DNA of 64,000 nt from Acidobacteriota bacterium (GCA_036759345.1 DAIOUV010000006.1:28438-92437); one strand, 5' to 3'. Counted from the first letter of the stretch, positions 52,302-64,000 are shown. Translations and numbers: made by a program. The notes: generated from the letters alone by a model not told the origin.

Positions 52302-53351
52302 ATGTCGAGCACCGCCGGACTCCGCGCGCTCATCCTCGCCGGCGGGAGTGGCACGCGGCTGTGGCCGCGCTCGACCGACGGCAGGCCGAAGCCCTTTCTC
52401 GCGCTGACGGGAGGAGAGTCGCTGCTTCGGGAGGCCTGGCGGCGCGCCGCCGACCTCGCCGGAAAAGACAACGTCTTCGTCTCGGGCCGCGCGTCGCACG
52501 AGCCGCTTCTCGTCGCCGAACTTCCGGAAGTTCCGCGCGCGCGCCTCGTCCTCGAGCCCGTGCGCCGCAACACCGCGCCCGCGATCGCCCTTTCGGCGTT
52601 GGCAGCCTCGGAGGAGGCGCCCGACGCCGTTCTCGCCGTGCTGCCGTCCGACCAGGCGGTGCGCGACGAGCCGGCGTTCCTCGCCGCTCTTCACGCGGCG
52701 GCCGCGGCGGCGCGGACGCACGAGGCGTTCGTCACGCTCGGGATCCCTCCGACGCGGGCCGAGACGGGGTTCGGGTACATGGAGGTTGAAGAGGGTGCCG
52801 CGCCCCTCCGCGTCATGCGATTCGTGGAAAAGCCGACGCTTTCGAAGGCCGAAGAGTTCGTCGCGTCCGACCGCTTCCTTTGGAACGCCGGCATCTTCGT
52901 GTTTCGGACCTCGCTCCTCTTCGAAGAACTCTCCCGAACTGCTCCCAAAATCCTCGACGTCGCTCGCCGCGCGCATGCGGCCCGTAAAGCCGGTGATTCT
53001 TCTTCCTTCAAAGAAATCTTCTCTTCTTCCCCGTCCATCTCCATCGACGTCGCCGTGATGGAGAAGGCCAGAAACGTGCTCGCCATCCCGTGCGCCTGCG
53101 GCTGGAGCGACCTCGGCTCGTGGGAGGCCGTCTTCGAGTTCCGGGGTGGAACCTCCGCGGGGAACATCCTCGAAGGTCCGGCCGAAGCGGTGGACGGCTC
53201 CGGCAACCTCGTGCTGGCGCAGGCGCGGCCGGTGCGCGTCGTCGGCCTCTCGGACGTCGTGGTCGTGGAATCGGAGGGCGGCCTCCTCGTCATGCGCCGG
53301 GGCGCGTCCGACGCCCTCCGGCGGAGCGTGGAAGAGGGGCTCGAGAGATGA
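52302..53351 (+). CDS. mannose-1-phosphate guanylyltransferase-like nucleotidyltransferase
   Basis: LILAGGSGTRLWP…KPF N-terminal nucleotidyl-transferase signature. 349 aa. Confidence 0.8.
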   Translation: MSSTAGLRALILAGGSGTRLWPRSTDGRPKPFLALTGGESLLREAWRRAADLAGKDNVFVSGRASHEPLLVAELPEVPRARLVLEPVRRNTAPAIALSALAASEEAPDAVLAVLPSDQAVRDEPAFLAALHAAAAAARTHEAFVTLGIPPTRAETGFGYMEVEEGAAPLRVMRFVEKPTLSKAEEFVASDRFLWNAGIFVFRTSLLFEELSRTAPKILDVARRAHAARKAGDSSSFKEIFSSSPSISIDVAVMEKARNVLAIPCACGWSDLGSWEAVFEFRGGTSAGNILEGPAEAVDGSGNLVLAQARPVRVVGLSDVVVVESEGGLLVMRRGASDALRRSVEEGLER

Positions 53352-54304
53352 TCGTGGCCGCCCCCATTCTCGCGTCCCTCTCACGGCTCGTGGCGACCGT
53401 GCGGACCGCTTACCGCGGGCCCGCGGCCGCCGTCGAGGACGCGGTCGTGTGCCTCCTCGCGCGCGGCCACCTCCTCATCGAGGACGTGCCGGGAGTAGGC
53501 AAGACGACGCTCGCCTCCGCGCTCGGAAAGGCGCTCGGCGTCGGCGTGCACCGCATCCAGTTCACGCCGGACACGCTTCCGTCCGACATCCTCGGCCTCA
53601 CGGTCTTCAACGTGCGGACGCAGGAGTTCGAGTTTCACCCGGGCCCCGTGTTCACACCCGTGCTCCTCGCCGACGAGATCAACCGGGCGACCCCGAAGAC
53701 GCAGGCGGCGCTCCTGCAGGCGATGAACGAGCGCGCCGTCTCCTCCGACGGCGTCACGCGGCCGCTGCCCGAGCCGTTCCTCGTCCTCGCGACGCAGAAC
53801 CCGGTGGAGTACCTCGGCACCTACCCGCTCCCCGAGTCGCAGCTCGACCGCTTCCTCATGCGCATCTCACTGGGGTATCCCTCGATGGAGGAGGAGCGGC
53901 GGCTTCTCGTGTCGGGCGGTGCGGACCGCATCCTCGCGACGCTCGCGCCCGCGCTCTCGCTCGAGGAGCTGGGGGCGGCCCAGGCCGCTACCGAGCGCGT
54001 CACCGTGGCCGACAAGCTCATGGACTACGTGCTCGCGATCGTGGGGCGTACGCGGAGCGGCAAGGACCTCCTCCTCGGCGTCTCGCCGCGGGGCGCGCAG
54101 GGGTTTTTCCGCGCGGTGCAGGCGCGCGCTCTCATCTCGGGCCGGCCCTATGCGACTCCCGACGACGTCAAGCGCGTCGCCGTCGCGACGCTCGCCCACC
54201 GCGTCCTCGCCTCGCAGCCGGGCGCCTGGGACGGCGGGGGAAGCGGCCGGCGCGAGCGCGACGCGGTCCAGCGCATTCTCGACGAGACGCCCGTTCCCCT
54301 CTGA
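53348..54304 (+). CDS. MoxR-family AAA+ ATPase
   Basis: GHLLIEDVPGVGKTTLA Walker A. LADEINRATPKTQAALLQAM. ATGA overlap with the upstream gene. Confidence 0.9.
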   Translation: MIVAAPILASLSRLVATVRTAYRGPAAAVEDAVVCLLARGHLLIEDVPGVGKTTLASALGKALGVGVHRIQFTPDTLPSDILGLTVFNVRTQEFEFHPGPVFTPVLLADEINRATPKTQAALLQAMNERAVSSDGVTRPLPEPFLVLATQNPVEYLGTYPLPESQLDRFLMRISLGYPSMEEERRLLVSGGADRILATLAPALSLEELGAAQAATERVTVADKLMDYVLAIVGRTRSGKDLLLGVSPRGAQGFFRAVQARALISGRPYATPDDVKRVAVATLAHRVLASQPGAWDGGGSGRRERDAVQRILDETPVPL

Positions 54305-54308
54305 ACCC

Positions 54309-55331
54309 GTGGCTTTCCGCGCGCGTTTCCAGAAGCTCCTCCATCCCGGAATCCTGGTCCGGGTCACGAATGTCGGGCTCGGCTTCATCCTGATGACGCT
54401 CGTCGTCGCCGTCGCCGCGACGAACACGGGAAACAACGGCCTCTACATCCTCGTGTCGCTCTTCCTCGGCGCGCTCGTCGTCTCGGGAGTCGTCTCGCGT
54501 CGGAACGTGGAGAACGTCGCGGTCGAGCTGGACGGTCCCGCGGAAATCTTCGCCGGCGTGCCGGTGCGGTTCACGCTCCGGCTCACGAATCGGGGTCGGC
54601 TGCCGCGCCGCGCCCTTCTCGTGAAGATCTCGAGCGCGGCCGCCCCGATTCTCTTCGGCCGCCTCGATCCGGGACGGCCCGCCGAACGCGGCGTCGACCT
54701 CGTCTTCCCGAGACGCGGTCGGAGATCCATCGAGTCGCTCCTTCTCTACAGCGGTTATCCGATCGGCCTCTTTCGGAAGGGACGGGTGCATCCGCTCGAA
54801 GACGAGCGCCTCGTCTACCCGTCCCCGGCGAACGTGCCGTACGTCCCCCCCGACCCCCGGGAAGCCGAGGGCGGCGATCCGCGCGACCGGCGACGGGGGC
54901 GCGGCGCCGAGATCCGCAACCTGCGCGAGGCGGGCTTCGGCGACGATCCGCGAGACGTCCACTGGCCCCAGACGGCGCGCCAGGGCAAGTTCATCGTGAA
55001 GGAGCGCGCCTCCGAGGAAGGCCGCGACGCGCTCGTGGCGCTCGACACGCATCGCCCGGCGGGCGCCGGCACGGCCTGGGACGATGCCTTCGAGAAATCG
55101 GTGTCCGAGGCTGCGGGTCTCGCACTGCGGCTCCTCACCCGCGGAAGCCGGGTGGGGCTGCTGCTCGGAGGCTCCCTCATGCCGCCGGGCTCCGGCCCGG
55201 CGCATCGCCGCGGCCTTCTGCGCGCGCTCGCGCTCGTCGAGCCGGCAAAGGAGCCCGGGCGGGCGCCCCCCTTCGTCCCGGGATCGGTCGCCGTTTACCG
55301 GGCGGGCCACGGGCCGGAGCGCGCCGCATGA
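54309..55331 (+). CDS. DUF58 (MoxR-associated, vWA-like) protein
   Basis: GTG start. ATNTGNNGLYIL motif. DVHWPQTARQGKFIVKE. Confidence 0.8.
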   Translation: MAFRARFQKLLHPGILVRVTNVGLGFILMTLVVAVAATNTGNNGLYILVSLFLGALVVSGVVSRRNVENVAVELDGPAEIFAGVPVRFTLRLTNRGRLPRRALLVKISSAAAPILFGRLDPGRPAERGVDLVFPRRGRRSIESLLLYSGYPIGLFRKGRVHPLEDERLVYPSPANVPYVPPDPREAEGGDPRDRRRGRGAEIRNLREAGFGDDPRDVHWPQTARQGKFIVKERASEEGRDALVALDTHRPAGAGTAWDDAFEKSVSEAAGLALRLLTRGSRVGLLLGGSLMPPGSGPAHRRGLLRALALVEPAKEPGRAPPFVPGSVAVYRAGHGPERAA

Positions 55332-57451
55332 ACGCGGGCCCCGCGACTGCCACCGCCGAAATCCCGTTCCTCAAGGAGCGCCTCCTCGCGCTCGGAAGCC
55401 TCGCGTTTCTCGCCCCGATGCCGCTCTTCTTCAGCAATGCCCTCGAGCTCGCCGTTCTGCTCGTCTACCTCGGCGTGCTCGCGCTGTTTCTGGCGCGCGT
55501 GCGCCGGGGGAGCGTGCCGCGCCTCGGGAATCGCGCGCTGAATCTCGCCGGGCTTCTCTACGTTCCGATCATCGTCCTCGACGTGCGTTTCGGGAGCCAG
55601 ACGCTCCTGAAGACGATGCTCCATCTCCTCCTCTTCACGACGCTCTTCAAGCTCGCCGCGATTCGCAAGGAGCGCGACCTCTCGCTCGCGCTGGCCTTGT
55701 CGGGCCTGCTGTTCGTCGCGTCCGTCTCGACGTCGTTTCATTACGCGATCCTTCTCTACGTGCTGCTCGTGGCCTTCGTCGGCTGGAGCGTGCTCGTGAA
55801 GTGGGCCCTCTGGCGCGACCTCTCCGGGGCTCCCGAGGAATGGAGCCGCGACCGCACGGCGCGCTCTCTTCCGGGTCGCGGTCCGCTCGTCAGCTCGGTG
55901 CTGTCCACGGTCCTCGTCGCCATCCCGCTCTTCCTGTTCCTCCCGCGCCTCAAGGCGCCCTACGTGAGGGGCGCCGAAGCGGGGCACGAGATCACGACGG
56001 GTTTCTCGGAGAACGTGGATCCGGACCTGTTCGGCGCGCTCAAGCAGAGCGACCGCGTCTTCCTCCGGATCACGAGCGAGGAGGCGCTCGGCGAGGGCGG
56101 GGCGGCGGTCCTGAGGCTTCGGACGCTCGCCCTCTCGCGGTGGGAGAACGGGGTGTGGAAGAAGCCTTCGGAGCGTTCCGCCGCCGGCGCCCGTTCCGGC
56201 TTCTCGACGCTCGTCCCCCTCGTGCCGCGCGGCCGTGGCGCGGGAGGAGGCACGGCGATGACGATCGACCTCACCCCGATCCAGACGCGCTACCTGCCCT
56301 ATCCGCTTCTCGGCAACGCGCTGCGTCTCTCCGAGGCCTCGTTTCGTAACCCCGGGCTCGCATACGTCGAGCGCGATGCGGCCCGCAACCTCCGCCTGCC
56401 GTTCGAACCGGACCGGACGATCCAGTACACGGTGACTTACGGGACGCGCCCGATCGCGGACCTCGAGCCCGGCGACGTGGCCGAAGCCCGAAAGCCAGCC
56501 GGGTTGCTCGCGCTGCGCTCCTTCGCCCTCGGCCAGCTCGACGGAATCGATCCAGCGGCGGACCCCGAGAGGGCCGCGCACGCGATCGAGTCCGTGCTCC
56601 GGGGCTGGACATACGAGCTGGATCTCCAGCCGCGCGGCCCGAATGCCGTCGAGGACTTCGTCGTGAACCGGCGGAAGGGGCACTGCCAGACATTCGCCAC
56701 GGCGATGGCGCTGCTCCTGCGGGAAGTGGGCGTCCCGACGCGCTTCGTGACCGGCTTCCTCGGCGGCGAGATCGGTGCGTTCGGGCGATACGTCCTCGTC
56801 CGCGGGCAGAACGTCCACGCCTGGGTCGAAGTGTGGTGCGGTGAGACCCGGGGTTGGGTCACCTTCGACCCGACGCCTCAGGTCGGGCAGCCGGGACTCG
56901 AAAGAGTCCCGCTCGCGCAACGCTTCCGCCAGGTGACCGACGGGCTCGAGTTTTTCTACGACCGCTTTGTTCTCTCGTTCAGTCAGGGAGATCAGGCCGA
57001 GCTTCTCCGAAAGCTGCGGGAGGCGGCGGGCGGCGCCCTTTCCGCGCTGCGCCGCGTAGGCGGAAGCGTGAGTCCTTTACTGCGCCGCCTGCCGGCGGCC
57101 GCACTGGTGGCGGCCGCACTCCTCTTGGCCTTCCTGGTGCTTCTCGGGCGCCGCCTGCTCGGCGTTTCGTGGAAAACGCGAGGCCTCGCACCCGCGTCGG
57201 CGGCCTACCGCCGCCTCCAGAAGGCGCTCCACCGGCTCGGCGCGCCGCTCACGCCCGCGTCCGTTCCCGCCGAGACCCTCGCCGCCGCCGCCGCGCTCGG
57301 TCCGGCCGCGGCGCGGCCCGCCGAAGCCATCGTGCGCGCTTACGTCCGTGAGTCCTTCGGAGGTCTCGCCCCTGCGCCTGGAGAGGAAGGCCGGTTGCGG
57401 GCGCTGCTCGACGAGTTTCGCGATGCGGCCGGCCGGCTGCCGACGCAATGA
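55328..57451 (+). CDS. transglutaminase-like membrane protein (TgpA-like: DUF3488 N-terminal TM domain + transglutaminase core)
   Basis: N-terminal 6-7 TM region. Core GHCQTFATAMALLLRE…HAWVEVW (Cys-His catalytic pair). Completes the MoxR-DUF58-TgpA triad. Confidence 0.8.
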   Translation: MNAGPATATAEIPFLKERLLALGSLAFLAPMPLFFSNALELAVLLVYLGVLALFLARVRRGSVPRLGNRALNLAGLLYVPIIVLDVRFGSQTLLKTMLHLLLFTTLFKLAAIRKERDLSLALALSGLLFVASVSTSFHYAILLYVLLVAFVGWSVLVKWALWRDLSGAPEEWSRDRTARSLPGRGPLVSSVLSTVLVAIPLFLFLPRLKAPYVRGAEAGHEITTGFSENVDPDLFGALKQSDRVFLRITSEEALGEGGAAVLRLRTLALSRWENGVWKKPSERSAAGARSGFSTLVPLVPRGRGAGGGTAMTIDLTPIQTRYLPYPLLGNALRLSEASFRNPGLAYVERDAARNLRLPFEPDRTIQYTVTYGTRPIADLEPGDVAEARKPAGLLALRSFALGQLDGIDPAADPERAAHAIESVLRGWTYELDLQPRGPNAVEDFVVNRRKGHCQTFATAMALLLREVGVPTRFVTGFLGGEIGAFGRYVLVRGQNVHAWVEVWCGETRGWVTFDPTPQVGQPGLERVPLAQRFRQVTDGLEFFYDRFVLSFSQGDQAELLRKLREAAGGALSALRRVGGSVSPLLRRLPAAALVAAALLLAFLVLLGRRLLGVSWKTRGLAPASAAYRRLQKALHRLGAPLTPASVPAETLAAAAALGPAAARPAEAIVRAYVRESFGGLAPAPGEEGRLRALLDEFRDAAGRLPTQ

Positions 57452-57514
57452 TTCATGTTGGGGATATCCTTTCGCGGGTGCTCAAGCTCTGCTTGGCGCA
57501 CCTGGAGGTAAGGA

Positions 57515-57862
57515 ATGAAGAAGACGACAATAGCAGTTTCTGTTCTCGTTGCGGTCTGTGCCGGCACGACGTTGCTCGCCAATCTCGACAACCAGAAGGC
57601 GTTCGTGGCGAAGTATCCTGACGCCAAGGCCTCTCTGGGCAAGTGCTCGACGTGTCACATGAAGCCTCTTCCGAAGAAGGAAGACCACGAGATGAACCCG
57701 TACGGGAAGGACGTCCAGACGAAGGCCGTCGTCGACCCGAAGGCCGAGAAGAAGACCTACAAGTTCGAGAAAATCGAGAGTCTCGACAGCGATGGCGACG
57801 GCGTGAAGAACATCGACGAGATCAAGGCCGGCACGAACCCCGGCGACCCGAAGTCCAAGTAA
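57515..57862 (+). CDS. small secreted monoheme cytochrome c
   Basis: Signal peptide and a single CSTCH heme-binding motif. Lower-GC region. GGAGG SD. Confidence 0.6.
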   Translation: MKKTTIAVSVLVAVCAGTTLLANLDNQKAFVAKYPDAKASLGKCSTCHMKPLPKKEDHEMNPYGKDVQTKAVVDPKAEKKTYKFEKIESLDSDGDGVKNIDEIKAGTNPGDPKSK

Positions 57863-57865
57863 GCC

Positions 57866-58330
57866 TTGGAACGCGAAGGCCCGGCGCCAATCACGCGGCG
57901 ACGGTGGATCGACATCCTCCTCGGCACCAGCTTCACGGCCTGGGCAGCGGCCGTGGTCTATCCGGTCCTCCGGTACCTCACCCCGGCCCGGGACGGTGGC
58001 GGCTCGAACAAGGCCACGCTCACCGACGCGCAGAAGCAGGAGCTCGCGAGCAACGGGTTCCTGATCGCCCGCGTCGGCACAGACCGCGTCCTGCTTCTGA
58101 AAGACAAGGAGCAGAAGCTGAAAGCGCTTTCGGCCAAGTGCACGCATGAGGGCTGCACCGTGCAGTTCGTCCCGGCCGACGGGATCATCTGGTGCGCCTG
58201 CCACAACGGGAAGTTCTCGCTCGACGGCCGCGTGATCTCGGGCCCGCCGCCCCGGCCCCTCATGGCGTTCACGGTGGAGGGAGACCTCAAGGGAGTCGTG
58301 AACGTGATCAAGCCGGGAGGCATGGCATGA
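57866..58330 (+). CDS. Rieske [2Fe-2S] iron-sulfur protein (TAT signal)
   Basis: RRRWIDILLG twin-arginine motif. CTHEGC…CACHNGKF Rieske boxes. Confidence 0.85.
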   Translation: MEREGPAPITRRRWIDILLGTSFTAWAAAVVYPVLRYLTPARDGGGSNKATLTDAQKQELASNGFLIARVGTDRVLLLKDKEQKLKALSAKCTHEGCTVQFVPADGIIWCACHNGKFSLDGRVISGPPPRPLMAFTVEGDLKGVVNVIKPGGMA

Positions 58331-61300
58331 GCGACGCGCGCGATTCGGCGCCGGTCCCGTCCGGTGTCGGGGCCAGGATTTTTCGGATGCTCGACGAGAG
58401 GTTCCAGATTTCGGGCCTCGTCACGTTCCTGGGACACAAGGAAGTGCCTGTCGGCGCCCATTCGCCGATCTGGTACTACCTTGGCGGCGTCTCGCTTTTC
58501 TTCTTCGTCGTTCAGATCGGGACCGGAATTCTCCTCCTGATGAACTACCAGGTCGGCGAGAACACGTCGTACGAGAGCATGAAGCATCTCGTGGGTCGCG
58601 TCCCGTTCGGCTGGCTCATCCGATCGATTCACTGCTGGTCCGCTCATCTCATGAGCCTCTCGGTGATGGCCCATCTTTTCAGCGTCCTGTTCCTGAAGGC
58701 CTACCGCAAGCCACGCGAGCTGACCTGGTATTCAGGCTTCGCGATGCTCGGTCTCGTCCTCGGCTTTGGATTCTCCGGCTACCTCCTCCCGTGGAACGAG
58801 CTGAGCTATTTCGCGACGGCCGTCGGGACCGACTCCGTGAAGTCCGTCCCCATCGTGGGTCCATGGATGCTGCGCGTGCTCCGGGGCGGTGAAGAGGTAT
58901 CGGTCCAGACGCTGTACCGGTTTTTCGCGCTCCACGTCTGCATCCTTCCGTTGATCATGGCGGGCCTCATCGGGGCACACCTGCTCTTCATTCAGCGGCA
59001 GGGGATGGCCGAGCCCCTCGAACACAGGCCATCGCCCGAGCCGAAGACGCGGCACCGCGGCATGCCCTTCTTCCCTAACTTCGCGATGCGGGACCTGCTC
59101 TTCTGGGTGATCTGCCTGAACATCCTCGCGCTCCTCGCGGTCGCGCTTCCATTCGGTCCCGGGATCCCGGGCATGGAATGGGAGCTCGGGGCGAAGGCGG
59201 ACCCGCTCAAGCCCGCATATCCGGGCATCAAGCCCGAGTGGTACTTCCTCTCGGTGTACCAGATGCTTCGGGAGTTCCCGGCGCACCTCTTCGGCATGGA
59301 GGGGCCGCAGGCTTGCCTGCTTCTCGCGAGCATCCTGGGCGCGATCGCGTTCGCGATCCCCCTTCTCGACCGGAACGCCGCAAAAGGCAAGCCGAGCCCG
59401 CTCTTCACGGACCTTGGCGTCGCCGGGCTTCTTTTCCTCGGGCTTCTGACCCTCAAGGCGTGGGACGTCGGGGTCCATGCGCCGCCCGGGCAGGATCCGG
59501 CGGGCAACCCCGCGATGGCCGCGACGATCGCGCGGACCGCGGCTCTGTGGATTCTCGGGATCGGGCTCGCCGTGACGGCGCTCCGGCGCCTTCGGTGGGG
59601 GCACTCGGCCTTCTCTTTCACCGCGGCCGTCCTCCTGCAAGCGGCGTTGAACGGATTCGCGCATCTGAGCTGGCTCGCGAGCGGCGGAGTCGCCCTTGCC
59701 GTTCTCGCCGTCCTGCTTCTCGCCGGGCGGGTTCGCGGCGGCGCGTCCGCCGCGGGTCTCATGCTTCCCCTCCTTCTCGCGCTCGCCGCGCCCTCCCCGG
59801 CGCGCGCGCAAGAGAAGGCGGAAGAGAAGGGGGAAGCGAAGGAGGCCGCGCCCGCACCGGCAACCGCGTCCGTGCCGGGGCAGGTCGTCGAGGAAGCCTG
59901 GCCTGCGGATTTTCAGAAGCTCTTCACGGAAGTGGACAAGAAGACGGGCCCCGTCCTGAACGAGAAGGCGAAGGCCCGGTTCCGGAGTCTGCCCAGCCAC
60001 GCGCAGAATCTGTTCTTCGTGGCGGCGAAGGCGGGCACGCTCTCTTCCTCGGCGCACCTCGCGACGCTTCTCGCGCTGGACATCGACGACCGCAAGGTCG
60101 AGCTGATCCTCGGGGACAACTGCGTCCTCTGCCACTCGAACCCGGATATGCCGGACGAGATTCTCTTCAAGCCTCGGGGGAAAGGCGACCCGAACGCGCA
60201 CCTGGACCTCAACGAGATCGTCAGCGACGTCCACTTCCGCGGTGGGCTGATGTGCTCCGGCTGCCATGGCGGCAAACCGACCGACGCCGAAATGTCGGCG
60301 GATATCGCGAAGCGCTGGCCCGAGAGCGAGAAGCGCAAGAAAGATCGCTCGTGGATTCCGGAGTTCTGCGCTCGCTGCCACTCCTCGAGCGAATTCATGC
60401 GGGGGTATAACCCGTCGCTGCCCGTGGACCAGCTGCTCAAGTACCGGACGAGCAAGCACGGGCAGCTTCTCCTGGAAAAGAAGGACTCGAAGGCCGCGCA
60501 GTGCGTCAGCTGCCACGGCGTGCATGGGATCCGCCCGCCCGACAGCACGAACTCCCTCGTCTACCGCGAGAACATTCCCGCGACGTGCGGCAAGTGTCAC
60601 GCGGACGCGGCCTATATGAAGGGCTACACGCTCGACGACGGCGTAACGCCGATCCCGACGAACCAGCTCGAGCAGTACAAGAAGAGCGTGCACGGCCTCG
60701 CGCTCCTCGGGAAGCACGACTCCGGCGCTCCGGCCTGCAACGGCTGCCATGGCAACCACGCGGCCCTCCCGCCTCAGGTGTCGTTCGTCTCGCAGGTGTG
60801 CCGGAACTGCCACGCGGCGAACGGCAGCCTCTTCGATGGCAGCCCGCACAAGAAGGCGTTCGAGTCGCACGGCTGGCCCGAATGCGAGACGTGCCACGGC
60901 AAGCACGACATCGTGCGTCCCACGGACGAGATGCTGAAGGACGACCCGAAGGCGCTCTGCCACGCCTGCCACGCGAAGTACGGTCAGCCGAAATGCGACG
61001 AGGCCGCGCGCTACTTCCACAGGACGATTACGACCCTCCGCGAGTCGCACGAAGCCCTGACCAAGGACGTCGACCGGCTCGCTGAGCGCGGCTTCGACGT
61101 CGACGAGCTGCGTTTCCAGGCGAGCGCGGTGTCCGACGACCTGCGCAAGACGCGTCTCGGGATACACACCTTCGACTGGAGCGACTTCACGCGCAACTCG
61201 GAGGAGACGTCGAAGGCGCTCGCGGGCCTCCAGGAAGGCTCCAAGGCCGTCTGGGCCGAGTACCGCTTCCGGCGGAACGGCCTCATCCTGGCGAGCGGAC

Positions 61301-61368
61301 TCATCTCGCTGTTCGCGGTCCTGCTCTACCTGAAGATCAAGCAGATCGATCGCGAGCCGCGAAAATAG
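58327..61368 (+). CDS. cytochrome b (bc-complex type) fused to C-terminal nine-heme cytochrome c domain
   Basis: N-terminal cytochrome b with heme-ligating His and PEWYFL motif (~420 aa). Extra TM helices, then nine CxxCH motifs (CVLCH, CSGCH, CARCH, CVSCH, CGKCH, CNGCH, CRNCH, CETCH, CHACH) and a C-terminal TM anchor. ATGA overlap with the Rieske gene. Confidence 0.85.
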   Translation: MSDARDSAPVPSGVGARIFRMLDERFQISGLVTFLGHKEVPVGAHSPIWYYLGGVSLFFFVVQIGTGILLLMNYQVGENTSYESMKHLVGRVPFGWLIRSIHCWSAHLMSLSVMAHLFSVLFLKAYRKPRELTWYSGFAMLGLVLGFGFSGYLLPWNELSYFATAVGTDSVKSVPIVGPWMLRVLRGGEEVSVQTLYRFFALHVCILPLIMAGLIGAHLLFIQRQGMAEPLEHRPSPEPKTRHRGMPFFPNFAMRDLLFWVICLNILALLAVALPFGPGIPGMEWELGAKADPLKPAYPGIKPEWYFLSVYQMLREFPAHLFGMEGPQACLLLASILGAIAFAIPLLDRNAAKGKPSPLFTDLGVAGLLFLGLLTLKAWDVGVHAPPGQDPAGNPAMAATIARTAALWILGIGLAVTALRRLRWGHSAFSFTAAVLLQAALNGFAHLSWLASGGVALAVLAVLLLAGRVRGGASAAGLMLPLLLALAAPSPARAQEKAEEKGEAKEAAPAPATASVPGQVVEEAWPADFQKLFTEVDKKTGPVLNEKAKARFRSLPSHAQNLFFVAAKAGTLSSSAHLATLLALDIDDRKVELILGDNCVLCHSNPDMPDEILFKPRGKGDPNAHLDLNEIVSDVHFRGGLMCSGCHGGKPTDAEMSADIAKRWPESEKRKKDRSWIPEFCARCHSSSEFMRGYNPSLPVDQLLKYRTSKHGQLLLEKKDSKAAQCVSCHGVHGIRPPDSTNSLVYRENIPATCGKCHADAAYMKGYTLDDGVTPIPTNQLEQYKKSVHGLALLGKHDSGAPACNGCHGNHAALPPQVSFVSQVCRNCHAANGSLFDGSPHKKAFESHGWPECETCHGKHDIVRPTDEMLKDDPKALCHACHAKYGQPKCDEAARYFHRTITTLRESHEALTKDVDRLAERGFDVDELRFQASAVSDDLRKTRLGIHTFDWSDFTRNSEETSKALAGLQEGSKAVWAEYRFRRNGLILASGLISLFAVLLYLKIKQIDREPRK

Positions 61369-61419
61369 GGCGTCTGAATCATTGGCAGACGGCCGCCATG
61401 GGCCCATCGTTTCCCGATC

Positions 61420-61890
61420 ATGAATCGGTTCCTGAAGGACAAGGAGCATCTGTTCCGCATGGCGGCGCTCTTCGCGGCGGGCGTCGTCCTCTTCTTGATC
61501 GTGCGGGCCGTGCTTGTTCCGAAGGGGTTCGGCGTGTACGGGCACTACCGCGCCGGCGCCCTCGAGGACAACCGCGTGCGCGCACCGCGCTTCGCGGGCC
61601 GGCCCGCCTGCATCGAGTGCCACACGGACGAAGGCGACCGCCTGAAGGGCGGCAAGCACGCCGGAGTCGGCTGCGAGGCCTGCCACGGCGCGCTCGCGAA
61701 GCACGCGGCGGACCCGTCGTCCCTCAAGCCGACGAAGCCAGACTCGAAGACGCTCTGCCAGACGTGCCACCTGATGAACGTCGCCAAGCCGGCGAAGTTC
61801 CCCCAGATCGACCCGAAGAGCCACATGGACGGTGGGCCCTGCCTGACGTGTCACGACCAGCACGCCCCCGACAAGGAGCCGAAGAAATGA
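61420..61890 (+). CDS. membrane-anchored tetraheme cytochrome c (NapC/NrfH-like size class)
   Basis: N-terminal TM helix. Four CxxCH motifs (CIECH, CEACH, CQTCH, CLTCH). Confidence 0.8.
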   Translation: MNRFLKDKEHLFRMAALFAAGVVLFLIVRAVLVPKGFGVYGHYRAGALEDNRVRAPRFAGRPACIECHTDEGDRLKGGKHAGVGCEACHGALAKHAADPSSLKPTKPDSKTLCQTCHLMNVAKPAKFPQIDPKSHMDGGPCLTCHDQHAPDKEPKK

Positions 61891-62645
61891 ATTCCGACCG
61901 CCGCGACTTCGTGCTCACGGCCGGAAAGCTCCTCGTGCTGACCGCGCCGGCGGCCGCCTACCTCGAGGCCATGGAGACCGGTAAGGCGGAAGAGCCCGCC
62001 TACAAGACCTTCGAGCACTACTGGGGAATGATCGTCGACATCGAGAAGTGCATCGGGTGTGGCAATTGCGTGAGGGCCTGCAAGGTCGAGAACGACGTGC
62101 CCCTCGAGCCGTACTTCTTCCGCACATGGGTGGAGCGCTACCACGTCGAAGGCGCCGGGGAGCATCCCGACGTCGACTCGCCCGACGGCGGCTACAATGG
62201 TTTTCCCGAGAAGTACGCGGCCGGCGACGGCGCCAAGAGCTTCTTCGTTCCGAAGCTCTGCAATCAGTGCGCGCACTCACCTTGCACACAAGTGTGCCCC
62301 GTGGGCGCCACATTCGAGAGCCCCGACGGCGCCGTCCTCGTCGACAAGACTTACTGCCTCGGCTGCCGATACTGCGTGCAGGCCTGCCCGTACGGGTGCC
62401 GGTTCATCGACCCGCGCACGAACACGGTCGACAAGTGCAACCTCTGCTACCACCGGATCACGAAGGGCCTCACGACGGCGTGCTGCGAGAGCTGCCCGAC
62501 GGGCGCGCGCCAGCTCGTCGATCTCAAGGACGCGAGGGATCCGGTCCACGAGTTCCTCCGAACGCACAAGGTGCATGTCCTCAAGCCTCAGATGGCCACG
62601 GGCTCGAAGGTCTTCTACAACGCCCTCGACGGGTCCGTGAGGTAG
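61887..62645 (+). CDS. TAT-exported 4Fe-4S ferredoxin-type subunit (NrfC/PsrB/ActB-C-domain-like)
   Basis: RRDFVLTAG TAT motif. Four Cys clusters (CIGCGNCVRAC, CNQCAHSPCTQVCP, CLGCRYCVQACP, CNLC…C). ATGA overlap with the upstream gene. Confidence 0.85.
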   Translation: MNSDRRDFVLTAGKLLVLTAPAAAYLEAMETGKAEEPAYKTFEHYWGMIVDIEKCIGCGNCVRACKVENDVPLEPYFFRTWVERYHVEGAGEHPDVDSPDGGYNGFPEKYAAGDGAKSFFVPKLCNQCAHSPCTQVCPVGATFESPDGAVLVDKTYCLGCRYCVQACPYGCRFIDPRTNTVDKCNLCYHRITKGLTTACCESCPTGARQLVDLKDARDPVHEFLRTHKVHVLKPQMATGSKVFYNALDGSVR

Positions 62646-62649
62646 GGAA

Positions 62650-63828
62650 ATGGAAGAAGGCATTCTCCACGCCATCCAGGGGTACATGTACCCCAACGAG
62701 GTCGAGCTCCAGTGGAGCATCCTCATCGTCCTGTACCCGTTCACGACCGGCCTCGTCGCCGGCGCCTTCATCCTCGCGTCGCTCGAGCGCGTCTTCAACG
62801 TGGCGGCGGTCAAGCCGACGTACCGGCTCGCGCTGCTCTCCGCGCTCGCGTTTCTCCTCGTCTCTCCCTTGCCGCTGCAGCTCCACCTCGGCCACCCGGA
62901 GCGCTCCATCGAGATGTACCTCACGCCGCATACGAGCTCGGCGATGGCGATGTTCGGCTTCATCTATCTCTGGTACCTGATGGCCGTCCTCGTTCTCGAG
63001 ATCTGGCTCGACTACCGCAAGGACATGGTCCTCATGGCCCGGTCCGAGACGGGCTGGAAGAAGACGCTCTACCGGATCCTCACCCTCGGCGTCGACAACA
63101 TCAGCGAGGAGTCGCTCCGCATCGACGACAAGCTGGGGCGCTTCATCACGATCGTGGGTATTCCGTCGGCCCTCCTTCTGCACGGCTACGTTGGATTCAT
63201 CTTCGGCTCGGTGAAGGCGAACCCGTGGTGGTCCACGCCCGTCATGCCGATCGTGTTCCTCTTCTCGGCCATCGTGTCGGGCATCGCCCTCGTGCTCCTC
63301 ATGTACATGCTCGTCTGCTTCCTGAAGGGCATTCCCATCGACATGCCATGCGTGGACACGATCGCCCGCTACCTGATGTACGCGTTTCTGGTCGATTTCT
63401 CTCTCGAGATGCTCGACCTGATCCACCGCATCTACGAGGCGGACGAGTCCTTCAAGAGCCTCGACTTCATGGTCCATACGCGGCTCTACACGTCCCAGAT
63501 TCTCGTCCAGATCGTCTTCGGCACGATCATCCCGATCGCCATGCTCGCCTTCATCCAGCTCGTGAAGCTGAGCGAAGCGGCCCGGAAGGGTATCTATGCC
63601 CTCGCCGGCCTCCTCACGCTGATGGGCATCTTCGCGATGCGGTGGAACGTCGTCATCGGCGGGCAGCTCTTCTCGAAGAGCTTCCTCGGGTACACGACGT
63701 ACAAGATGGCATTCGCGACGAAGGAGGGGCTGCTCCCCGCGATTCTCCTGATGATCCTTCCGTTCGGAATCCTCTGGGGTCTCGTGAAGCTGCTGCCACC
63801 CTTCGACGAGGAGAAGGCGGCGGTCTGA
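62650..63828 (+). CDS. NrfD/PsrC-family integral membrane quinone-interacting subunit
   Basis: 392 aa with 8-10 TM helices and the typical NrfD-family layout. Confidence 0.85.
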   Translation: MEEGILHAIQGYMYPNEVELQWSILIVLYPFTTGLVAGAFILASLERVFNVAAVKPTYRLALLSALAFLLVSPLPLQLHLGHPERSIEMYLTPHTSSAMAMFGFIYLWYLMAVLVLEIWLDYRKDMVLMARSETGWKKTLYRILTLGVDNISEESLRIDDKLGRFITIVGIPSALLLHGYVGFIFGSVKANPWWSTPVMPIVFLFSAIVSGIALVLLMYMLVCFLKGIPIDMPCVDTIARYLMYAFLVDFSLEMLDLIHRIYEADESFKSLDFMVHTRLYTSQILVQIVFGTIIPIAMLAFIQLVKLSEAARKGIYALAGLLTLMGIFAMRWNVVIGGQLFSKSFLGYTTYKMAFATKEGLLPAILLMILPFGILWGLVKLLPPFDEEKAAV

Positions 63829-63879: not shown

Positions 63880-64000
63880 ATGGACGACTCGGGCTCGAAG
63901 CTCGCGAAGCAGGTCGCCGCGCTGGCTGAGTCGCTCCGGTCGGTGGAAGCGCGTTTGGCCGCGCTCGAGGGAGCGGCCGCGCCGAAGAGCGCGAGGCCCA
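63880..64000 (+). CDS. hypothetical protein, 3' end off-window
   Basis: ATG then MDDSGSKLAKQVAALAESLRSVEARLAALEG… (coiled-coil-like). Only 40 codons visible. Confidence 0.3.
   Translation, partial: MDDSGSKLAKQVAALAESLRSVEARLAALEGAAAPKSARP

Follow-up and report, generated by a model that had tools for sequence, protein, structure and literature searches.

The anaerobic, menaquinone-based form of complex III is thought to be represented by Rieske/cytochrome b complexes that have multiheme acceptors, none of which, to our knowledge, has been studied outside the anammox bacteria. The locus described here bears on the long-standing question of when an anaerobe picks an energy-conserving Q-cycle and when a non-pumping NrfD-type route to periplasmic or extracellular acceptors, a choice that Geobacter solves with different enzymes. 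In the anammox complexes, a hexa- or octaheme cytochrome c stands in place of cytochrome f or c1 (PMC12954380). A similar proposal, of multiheme acceptors for the Rieske proteins of anaerobic bc complexes, was made earlier (Dibrova 2013, cited in PMC5317091), and the 2017 sequel to Dibrova et al. 2013 speaks, for a clade G', of long cytochromes b and of 'large conserved operons ... of an unknown function'. Among modules that combine a c-type cytochrome, an iron-sulfur (FeS) protein and an NrfD-like subunit, those of the Cbc4 type carry the annotation menaquinol:ferricytochrome c oxidoreductase, and SirCD, which is able to stand in for CymA, shows that such modules work as quinol dehydrogenases (PMC11434368), while Hmc and Dsr possess an additional quinone-interacting cytochrome b subunit (PMC8076601). 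Our literature search, outside of which the most relevant survey (Dibrova et al. 2013) fell, found no paper on a Rieske-nonaheme complex. Here we analyze a stretch of 64,000 nucleotides from an Acidobacteriota bacterium of the class Thermoanaerobaculia, uncultured and from soil or sediment (GCA_036759345.1 DAIOUV010000006.1:28438-92437), referred to below as the window, in which two such systems adjoin. Module A consists of a Rieske protein and a cytochrome b fused to a nonaheme cytochrome c domain (cytbMH), and module B of a tetraheme cytochrome c (c4), an FeS protein and an NrfD subunit; a small cytochrome (c1) precedes them and a DUF2339-like gene follows. We propose that modules A and B are two separable, parallel menaquinol:multiheme-cytochrome oxidoreductases that in this lineage share c1 and the DUF2339-like protein, a reading to which we give about an even chance of being correct.

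A locus found in three configurations

The initial annotation of the window described six co-directional genes, mostly joined by 4-nt overlaps, which carried about 14 c-type hemes, lacked a molybdopterin subunit and might encode a hybrid supercomplex. All six genes are present on the plus strand at the coordinates given in Table 1, their identities and their twin-arginine translocation (Tat) signals are borne out by Pfam and NCBIfam domain scans and by sequence motifs, and two quinone-interacting modules do stand side by side. The c-heme sites sum to 1 + 9 + 4 = 14, and no molybdopterin or NrfA gene was found within 10 kb on either side in L001/L002 (contigs and loci carry L numbers throughout; L001 is the public parent contig, which extends beyond the window end). 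The junctions and the end of the array had to be revised. Overlaps of 4 nt occur at only two of the five junctions (Rieske/cytochrome b and c4/FeS), the remaining three being gaps of 3, 4 and 51 nt, the longest of which precedes c4; and instead of ending at 63828 the array continues into a seventh co-directional gene, which begins at 63880. The cytbMH reading frame opens at 58192, its actual start being the ATG at 58327 in an ATGA overlap with the Rieske gene. The G+C content of the window is ~69%, named homologues derive from metagenome-assembled genomes (MAGs) of Thermoanaerobaculia or Acidobacteriota, and the exact NrfD protein is present on 14 public contigs, the longest of 187 kb.

In the closest relatives, the syntenic locus is bounded by TgpA upstream and an NfnAB-like gene downstream, and it occurs with both modules, with A only or with B only. 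Two close relatives (L010 and L026) carry c1-Rieske-cytbMH-DUF2339 with module B cleanly absent, while six metagenome contigs from relatives that are just as close (L102, L103, L104, L107, L118 and L171) carry c1-c4-FeS-NrfD-DUF2339 without Rieske/cytochrome b; in the latter, NrfD and Nfn are each 94-95% identical and ~77-87 nt lie between c1 and c4. Farther afield, module B stands alone in a Vicinamibacteria locus (L093), most module A loci of other phyla are without module B, and in L087 the two modules are convergent and therefore transcribed separately. Since one and the same locus exists in A+B, A-only and B-only versions, each module can stand alone. The locus thus behaves as a cassette site: c1 on one side and the DUF2339-like gene on the other are always there, and the space between holds A, B or both.

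The upstream genes (Table 1) stop 63 nt ahead of c1, and the position of TgpA is kept in most close relatives. The NfnAB-like gene, two genes downstream of NrfD (L001 12885-15854), encodes a 989-aa fusion of NfnA-like, NfnB/GltD-like and rubrerythrin/ferritin-like parts that scores 1581 bits against PRK12775, below the cut-off of 1895, and is 90-95% identical among relatives. It recalls the NAD(P) oxidoreductases of the anammox Rieske/cytochrome b operons and was, on that analogy, considered as a further subunit. Only the closest relatives keep its synteny, next to each of the three configurations, and it is absent at L087, L089 and L090.

Adjacency of the two modules recurs well beyond this locus. 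They adjoin in 11 of 80 GTDB loci, with further cases in L087 and L089; the examples come from Acidobacteriota, NC10 and Ignavibacteria, and module B lies downstream of A, upstream of it (L022, L069) or convergent to it (L087). When the fusion protein was placed in a neighbor-joining tree, loci with and without the linkage came out mixed throughout the acidobacterial clade. An NC10 MAG (L090) retains the set at identities of 40% (Rieske), 48% (cytochrome b), 36% (nine-heme protein), 52% (FeS), 57% (NrfD) and 34% (DUF2339-like), and its module B cytochrome (L090 2939-3685) is an octaheme protein made of two tandem c4-like halves, 36% and 31% identical to c4. The adjacency of modules A and B is not chance. 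Each module does occur alone in many genomes, and the 51-nt gap ahead of c4 holds a conserved element, as would suit two functionally unrelated respiratory operons that happen to adjoin in a gene-dense genome; we regard this explanation as very unlikely, given that adjacency survives across phyla, in three orientations and with proteins that are 36-57% identical, that linkage is scattered over the whole acidobacterial clade, that c1 and the DUF2339-like protein are partners common to both modules, and that the same 10-nt motif lies upstream of each.

Alternatively, A and B might dock, perhaps via the DUF2339-like protein or by bringing hemes of c4 and of the nonaheme domain into contact, to form one physical supercomplex that holds 13-14 hemes and has two quinone sites. 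Such an assembly would be comparable in spirit to Hmc or DsrMKJOP, in which NrfD-like and cytochrome b membrane subunits are combined. The recurrent adjacency described above speaks in its favor, as do the linkage of the DUF2339-like gene to both modules, a 4-nt overlap of the cytochrome b-nonaheme gene with c4 in L089, the location of module B near a different type of Rieske/b6/subunit-IV cluster in L095, and a weak similarity of c4 to hemes 6-9 of the nonaheme domain (E = 6e-5). Against it stand the A-only and B-only forms that this locus takes in close relatives, separate transcription in L087, the solitary module B of L093 and the lack of B in most module A loci of other phyla, and we consider it unlikely. 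Taken together, these comparisons support the hybrid supercomplex of the initial annotation only in part: the modules do pair recurrently, but the pairing is facultative, and the data do not agree with one obligate machine. The L095 cluster (L095 12638-19194) is unusual in its own right. It begins ~650 nt downstream of c4-FeS-NrfD-DUF2339, with one opposite-strand gene between, and encodes a Fer4 protein, a HEAT-repeat protein, a weak Rieske match, a short cytochrome b6, a 361-aa subunit-IV-like protein and, as its last gene, a 1008-aa cytochrome with at least seven CxxCH motifs and FixO-like matches that runs off the locus.

Composition of modules A and B

The fusion of cytochrome b to a nonaheme domain with a terminal membrane anchor, as annotated initially, is real. 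The identical 1013-aa gene is present in four independent assemblies (JGI 3300025484, ENA ERZ27294354, ENA ERZ27294365 and Logan ERR1960505), more than 100 protein clusters (90% identity, ~1000 aa) span its full length at 50-98% identity, and a single uninterrupted fused reading frame occurs in 18 GTDB species genomes, which together rule out a mis-assembly. In 58 loci of other lineages (Myxococcota, Krumholzibacteriota, Gemmatimonadota, Zixibacteria, Ignavibacteria/Bacteroidota, Marinimicrobia, Calditrichota and Sumerlaeota), the gene is split at the linker into a cytochrome b gene and a separate, adjoining multiheme gene, and the nonaheme family at large (363 clusters at 50% identity, E<=1e-30 by exhaustive HMMER search) consists mostly of stand-alone proteins of ~420-530 aa; fused forms also occur in Haliangiales. 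Since the same parts are separate in so many loci and the heme domain mostly stands alone, the fusion is mainly an acidobacterial variant of a widespread Rieske-cytochrome b-multiheme operon. A genome scan confirmed at least 594 relatives of the cytochrome b among 185,579 species genomes. In two long-read MAGs (L015 and L025) the cytochrome b-nonaheme gene appears in frame-shifted pieces, probably through sequencing errors, and split versus fused calls in such MAGs need caution.

Invariance was assessed in an alignment of 17 cytbMH orthologues (54-88% identity). All nine CxxCH motifs are invariant in 17/17, as are the b-heme ligands H102/H116 and H203/H218, with b6-type 13/14 spacing, and the quinol-oxidation motif P303-E-W-Y306; judged from this alignment, the conservation of the motifs is far beyond chance. 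The best PDB matches of the cytochrome b domain are cytochrome b6 chains (1e-45). The heme-cn site CxGG reads YLGG (WYYLGG), with Tyr in place of Cys, and therefore no heme cn is expected. No cytochrome c1 or f domain was found in the protein, a c3/c7-type nonaheme domain standing in that place. With a Rieske subunit, two His pairs and a PEWY-bearing subunit-IV domain, module A has the features of a true Rieske/cytochrome b complex, and it is a variant, neither a canonical bc1 nor a canonical b6f complex. The linker of extra helices contains no invariant His or Cys among the 17 orthologues. Its last helix is signal-peptide-like (...PSPARA/QE), which fits a placement of the heme domain (~490 residues, predicted periplasmic from hydropathy) on the periplasmic side, and the positive-inside pattern agrees.

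The nonaheme domain matches a DmsE-type decaheme family over residues 795-888 (5e-10); its AF2 model reaches a pLDDT of 73, and a Foldseek search of the model against the PDB returned no match below E about 1. Besides the CxxCH motifs, 8 further His and 3 Met are invariant in this region. With only 8 invariant non-motif His for 9 hemes, one heme could have an open coordination site and the domain could be a terminal reductase, as in octaheme NrfA/MccA/HAO-type enzymes, and the top Foldseek match, albeit non-significant (E about 1), is Kuenenia hydroxylamine oxidoreductase. All nine motifs are canonical CxxCH, however, with no CxxCK or extended motif among them, any of the three invariant Met could provide the ninth axial ligand, and neither fold nor sequence searches gave a significant match to a catalytic multiheme enzyme. 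We therefore give a catalytic role of this domain only the slimmest of chances.

The Rieske protein (Pfam Rieske, E = 9e-13) has the ligand motifs CTHEGC and CACHNG, the disulfide cysteines, the Tat motif TRRRW and a transmembrane helix, and its best solved relatives are b6f Rieske subunits (1.5e-15). Box II reads CACHNGKF, compared to CPCHGSQY in b6f, the family signature being CACHNG-x-F. The box II Ser is replaced in all 81 family members examined, by Gly or, in two, by Ala, and the Tyr is replaced by Phe in about half of them, including the present protein. According to published mutagenesis, the Ser and Tyr hydrogen-bond donors of box II raise the cluster potential. Since both donors are replaced, we infer that the protein is of the low-potential, menaquinol type. 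Across ~10 phyla, where the retrieved locus extends far enough upstream, a Rieske gene almost always adjoins the cytochrome b-multiheme genes; module A is a widespread unit.

The NrfD subunit of module B is strongly conserved. The best 120 clusters of NrfD are all at least 78% identical to it, one of them from Vicinamibacteria, a level of conservation far above that of the cytochrome b fusion. NrfD matches PF03916 over residues 19-341 (E = 1.4e-35), reached no NCBIfam equivalog cut-off and found no match in the PDB by sequence, whether searched alone or as a 10-sequence profile. The FeS protein matches Fer4_11 (E = 9e-24) and, below the cut-off in each case, the NCBIfam models for TtrB (1.4e-56), DsrO (3e-48) and NrfC (5e-40); its PDB matches are PsrB (2vpw_B, 4e-37) and ArrB (4e-34). 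The nearest relatives of the FeS and NrfD subunits belong to the quinol-oxidizing modules TtrB, NrfC, PsrB and ArrB. The c4 protein has c3/c7/c554-type Pfam matches, its gene is translationally coupled to the FeS gene, and gene order is the same in all module B loci. A polytopic NrfD subunit without cofactors, a Tat-exported four-cluster ferredoxin and a c-type cytochrome that replaces the catalytic subunit are the features of an NrfCD/PsrBC-type module. A Psr/Ttr/Arr/Nrf holoenzyme was ruled out for lack of a catalytic subunit within 10 kb; neither PsrA/TtrA/ArrA-type molybdopterin subunits nor NrfA were found at L087, L089, L093 or L095.

Table 1. Genes, domains and non-coding elements of the array, in window coordinates unless a contig is named (TM, transmembrane).
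Feature	Position	Strand	Description
Upstream array	52302-57451		NTP-transferase, MoxR-type AAA ATPase, DUF58, transglutaminase-like TgpA; overlapping, co-directional
10-nt motif CAATGATTCA	57446-57455	+	~60 nt upstream of c1 start; overlaps TgpA stop codon
c1	57515-57862	+	secreted monoheme cytochrome c, 115 aa; one CxxCH, signal peptide
Rieske protein	57866-58330	+	154 aa; TTG start, TRRRW Tat motif, TM anchor
cytbMH fusion	58327-61368	+	cytochrome b-multiheme, 1013 aa; nine CxxCH
cytbMH: cytochrome b6-like four-helix domain	58327-59019	+	residues 1-231; Cytochrome_B 4e-46
cytbMH: subunit-IV-like domain	59059-59475	+	three TM helices, PEWY; Cytochrom_B_C 7e-08
cytbMH: linker	59512-59802	+	~four extra TM helices; hydropathy and positive-inside pattern
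cytbMH: periplasmic nonaheme cytochrome c domain (predicted)	59809-61266	+	nine CxxCH; Cytochrome_C7 and Paired_CXXCH matches
cytbMH: C-terminal TM anchor	61273-61341	+	hydropathy peak at residues 983-1005, then KQIDREPRK
18-nt element GGGCGTCTGAATCATTGG	61368-61385	+	begins within cytbMH stop codon, 35 nt upstream of c4
Inverted CAATGATTCA core	61375-61384	-	inside the 18-nt element ahead of c4
c4	61420-61890	+	membrane-anchored tetraheme cytochrome c, 156 aa; N-terminal TM helix, four CxxCH
FeS protein	61887-62645	+	252 aa; DRRDF Tat motif, four Cys clusters
NrfD	62650-63828	+	NrfD/PsrC-family integral membrane quinone-site subunit, 392 aa
Seventh gene, DUF2339-like	63880-64000, cut by window end	+	complete gene 520 aa, L001 11231-12793

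Shared elements and proposed electron routes

The small cytochrome c1, whose heme motif is CSTCH, ends in a thrombospondin-type-3-like Ca-binding repeat (TSP3_bac at E = 3e-4, a weak match that misses the Pfam cut-off) and partially matches NF041762, 'GEGP diheme protein'. It is restricted to the closest relatives, yet is found there in all three configurations. The DUF2339-like protein, polytopic with an N-terminal coiled coil, has itself no Pfam (E<=0.1) or NCBIfam match; PF10101 (DUF2339) is carried by homologues at 34-46% identity and by the L095 orthologue. Its AF2 model is all-helical (pLDDT 83). The gene adjoins Rieske/cytochrome b-multiheme genes in 19 further loci detected with a local jackhmmer search, including Myxococcota, Krumholzibacteriota and Haliangiales loci without module B; it is the fourth gene of module B in L087, L089 and L095, and lies convergent beside module B in L093. 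A scan of metagenome contigs seeded with this protein yielded 80 loci, ~11 with both modules, ~28 with B only, ~10 with cytochrome b/multiheme genes only and ~30 with neither, the last being mostly short contigs or homologues that are at most 31% identical. There is a small chance, in our estimate, that the protein is a common scaffold or an ion-translocating subunit that docks module A, B or both; the conserved intramembrane residues R81, E141, D234, R446 and K483 would fit an ion-translocating partner. If so, these systems would amount to a new, modular class of quinol:multiheme-cytochrome oxidoreductase united by a DUF2339-like subunit, and a locus with both A and B would encode one complex with two mechanistically different quinone sites. 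No paper tying DUF2339 to respiration turned up in our literature search, and with these loci a branch of this uncharacterized family gains its first functional context, that of respiratory quinone modules.

Two non-coding elements are likewise common to the configurations. The AT-rich motif CAATGATTCA has exactly two copies in the window, in opposite orientations, a count that is not significant given that 18% of shuffles yield at least two matches. It may nonetheless be a shared operator, promoter or regulatory site on account of its position and conservation, as opposed to its count: the motif is kept upstream of c1 in 10 relatives representing all three configurations, in the form ACTGATTCA in L010 and L026. 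The element GGGCGTCTGAATCATTGG, unique in the window, is identical in 19 loci (6 copies of the present contig and 13 relatives) and is kept whether c4 comes after cytbMH or directly after c1, which suggests that module B has its own control site. This arrangement would suggest a common regulator acting at separate sites, one at the head of the array and one at module B. Sigma-70 and terminator scans were uninformative: no promoter was called, and terminator-like sites were near background with none in the intergenic gaps. Rfam had no match in the window. An RNA hairpin considered in the 51-nt gap was rejected because its 3' arm is not kept in relatives; the conserved feature of this gap is therefore sequence and not structure.

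From gene content, cofactor motifs, topology signals and the presence/absence pattern of the modules, we infer the following direction of electron flow. In module A, menaquinol would be oxidized at the PEWY site, with one electron passing via the low-potential-type Rieske cluster into a nine-heme wire, which replaces cytochrome c1/f and in Thermoanaerobaculia is fused to the cytochrome b/subunit-IV polypeptide, and the second crossing the membrane via the two b hemes, in an energy-conserving Q-cycle. In module B, electrons would flow from the NrfD quinone site through the FeS clusters to the four hemes of c4, making it a Cbc4/SirCD/NrfCD-type quinol dehydrogenase without a catalytic subunit. 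The Tat motifs of the Rieske and FeS proteins, the signal-like helix ahead of the heme domain and the membrane anchors all indicate that both modules probably face the periplasm. Most likely, A and B act in parallel, each offering its own way into a common pool of multiheme acceptors in the periplasm or otherwise outside the cytoplasm, module A needing a larger driving force and module B not. The occurrence of A+B, A-only and B-only versions at one locus is what interchangeable, parallel modules predict.

Neighboring genes elsewhere bear on the acceptors. In a Haliangiales MAG (L088), the fused complex has cbb3-oxidase genes on one side and MtrC/MtrF-like multiheme cytochromes on the other; a second MAG (L091) has a cytochrome b-decaheme-DUF2339 set beside porin-cytochrome-like outer-membrane beta-barrel and decaheme genes; and the NC10 context (L090) includes a 15-heme NapC-like protein. 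These contexts point to multiheme or terminal-oxidase acceptors, with those of L088 and L091 hinting at oxygen and extracellular acceptors.

The modules could also operate in series. Module B would then be a Qrc-like electrogenic cytochrome c:menaquinone reductase fed by low-potential periplasmic donors, and module A would re-oxidize the menaquinol to a higher-potential cytochrome pool, so that energy is conserved between two periplasmic heme pools. NrfD-type modules are able to reduce quinone, as in Qrc (PMC6303296, PMC8076601), both modules appear to face the periplasm, and they are co-located with conserved sequence motifs upstream of both. In contrast, the FeS subunit scores higher against TtrB (192 bits) and NrfC (137 bits) than against QrcC (100 bits), no QrcB-like subunit is present, no periplasmic hydrogenase or formate dehydrogenase was found near the array, and either module is found without the other at the same locus. 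We judge the serial scheme improbable; it is weakened, as is the supercomplex, by the existence of A-only and B-only loci.

Several observations weigh against two parallel oxidoreductases as well. The recurrence of A/B adjacency across phyla and the cytbMH/c4 overlap in L089 would fit physical or serial cooperation too, and the genomes behind the A-only and B-only contigs may encode the other module elsewhere. The direction of electrons through an NrfD module is not readable from sequence, and Qrc runs the opposite way. No terminal acceptor is encoded nearby in the window. As for the proposed shared partner, the DUF2339-like protein has no invariant His or Cys, and a fold search with it returned generic helical repeats only. 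The A+B, A-only and B-only variants of a single locus offer a ready-made natural comparison for the choice between an energy-conserving Q-cycle and a non-pumping NrfD route.

Comparison with described systems

Two of the ingredients have been described before, namely multiheme Rieske acceptors in anammox bacteria and c-FeS-NrfD modules in Cbc4, SirCD, Nhc, Hmc and Dsr. We found no earlier description of the 12-helix cytochrome b-nonaheme fusion, of its recurrent, though facultative, pairing with a Cbc4-like module or of the DUF2339-like partner.

Module B resembles Geobacter Cbc4 (CbcSTU), Shewanella SirCD and NrfBCD-type systems in combining a c-type cytochrome, a periplasmic FeS protein and an NrfD-like subunit without a catalytic subunit. 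The likeness to CbcSTU/SirCD is one of gene architecture; no NCBIfam equivalog cut-off is reached, and unlike those systems module B has a fourth gene, for the DUF2339-like membrane protein. Alternative complex III (ActABCDEF) and QrcABCD similarly unite a multiheme cytochrome, an FeS protein and an NrfD-type subunit on the periplasmic side without molybdenum. The resemblance to alternative complex III drawn in the initial annotation nonetheless fails, and membership was rejected: the ActB1/QrcB molybdopterin-like domain is absent, the 252-aa FeS protein aligning only to the FeS part of ActB (residues 678-825, 1.6e-20); there is one NrfD-like subunit compared to ActC plus ActF; and c4 is a tetraheme, not a pentaheme, cytochrome, with four hemes where alternative complex III and Qrc have five or six. 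In HmcABCDEF, NhcABCD and DsrMKJOP, a multiheme cytochrome c, an NrfC-like FeS protein and an NrfD-like subunit are clustered as they are here. The b-type partner of Hmc and Dsr is a NarI-type cytochrome b, whereas here it is a Rieske/b6-type, putatively Q-cycle enzyme; moreover, the present locus has no cytoplasmic HdrD-like subunit, and its two parts are separable.

Close counterparts of module A are the anammox Rieske/cytochrome b complexes (Kuenenia Kustd1480-1485 and Kuste4569-4574), in which a b6-like cytochrome b and a Rieske protein are likewise combined with a multiheme protein that replaces cytochrome f/c1. Module A differs from them in that cytochrome b, subunit IV and the heme protein form one polypeptide with nine hemes, in the loss of the heme-cn CxGG site, in a Rieske box II that predicts a low potential as opposed to one above +300 mV, and in the apparent lack of an NAD(P) oxidoreductase conserved in the operon, the downstream NfnAB-like gene being syntenic only in the closest relatives. 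Like cytochrome b6f and bc1, module A has a Rieske cluster, a PEWY motif at the Qo site and two b hemes whose His ligands follow the b6-type spacing. In place of cytochrome f/c1 and heme cn, it has the fused nonaheme domain, with ~four extra transmembrane helices and a C-terminal anchor.

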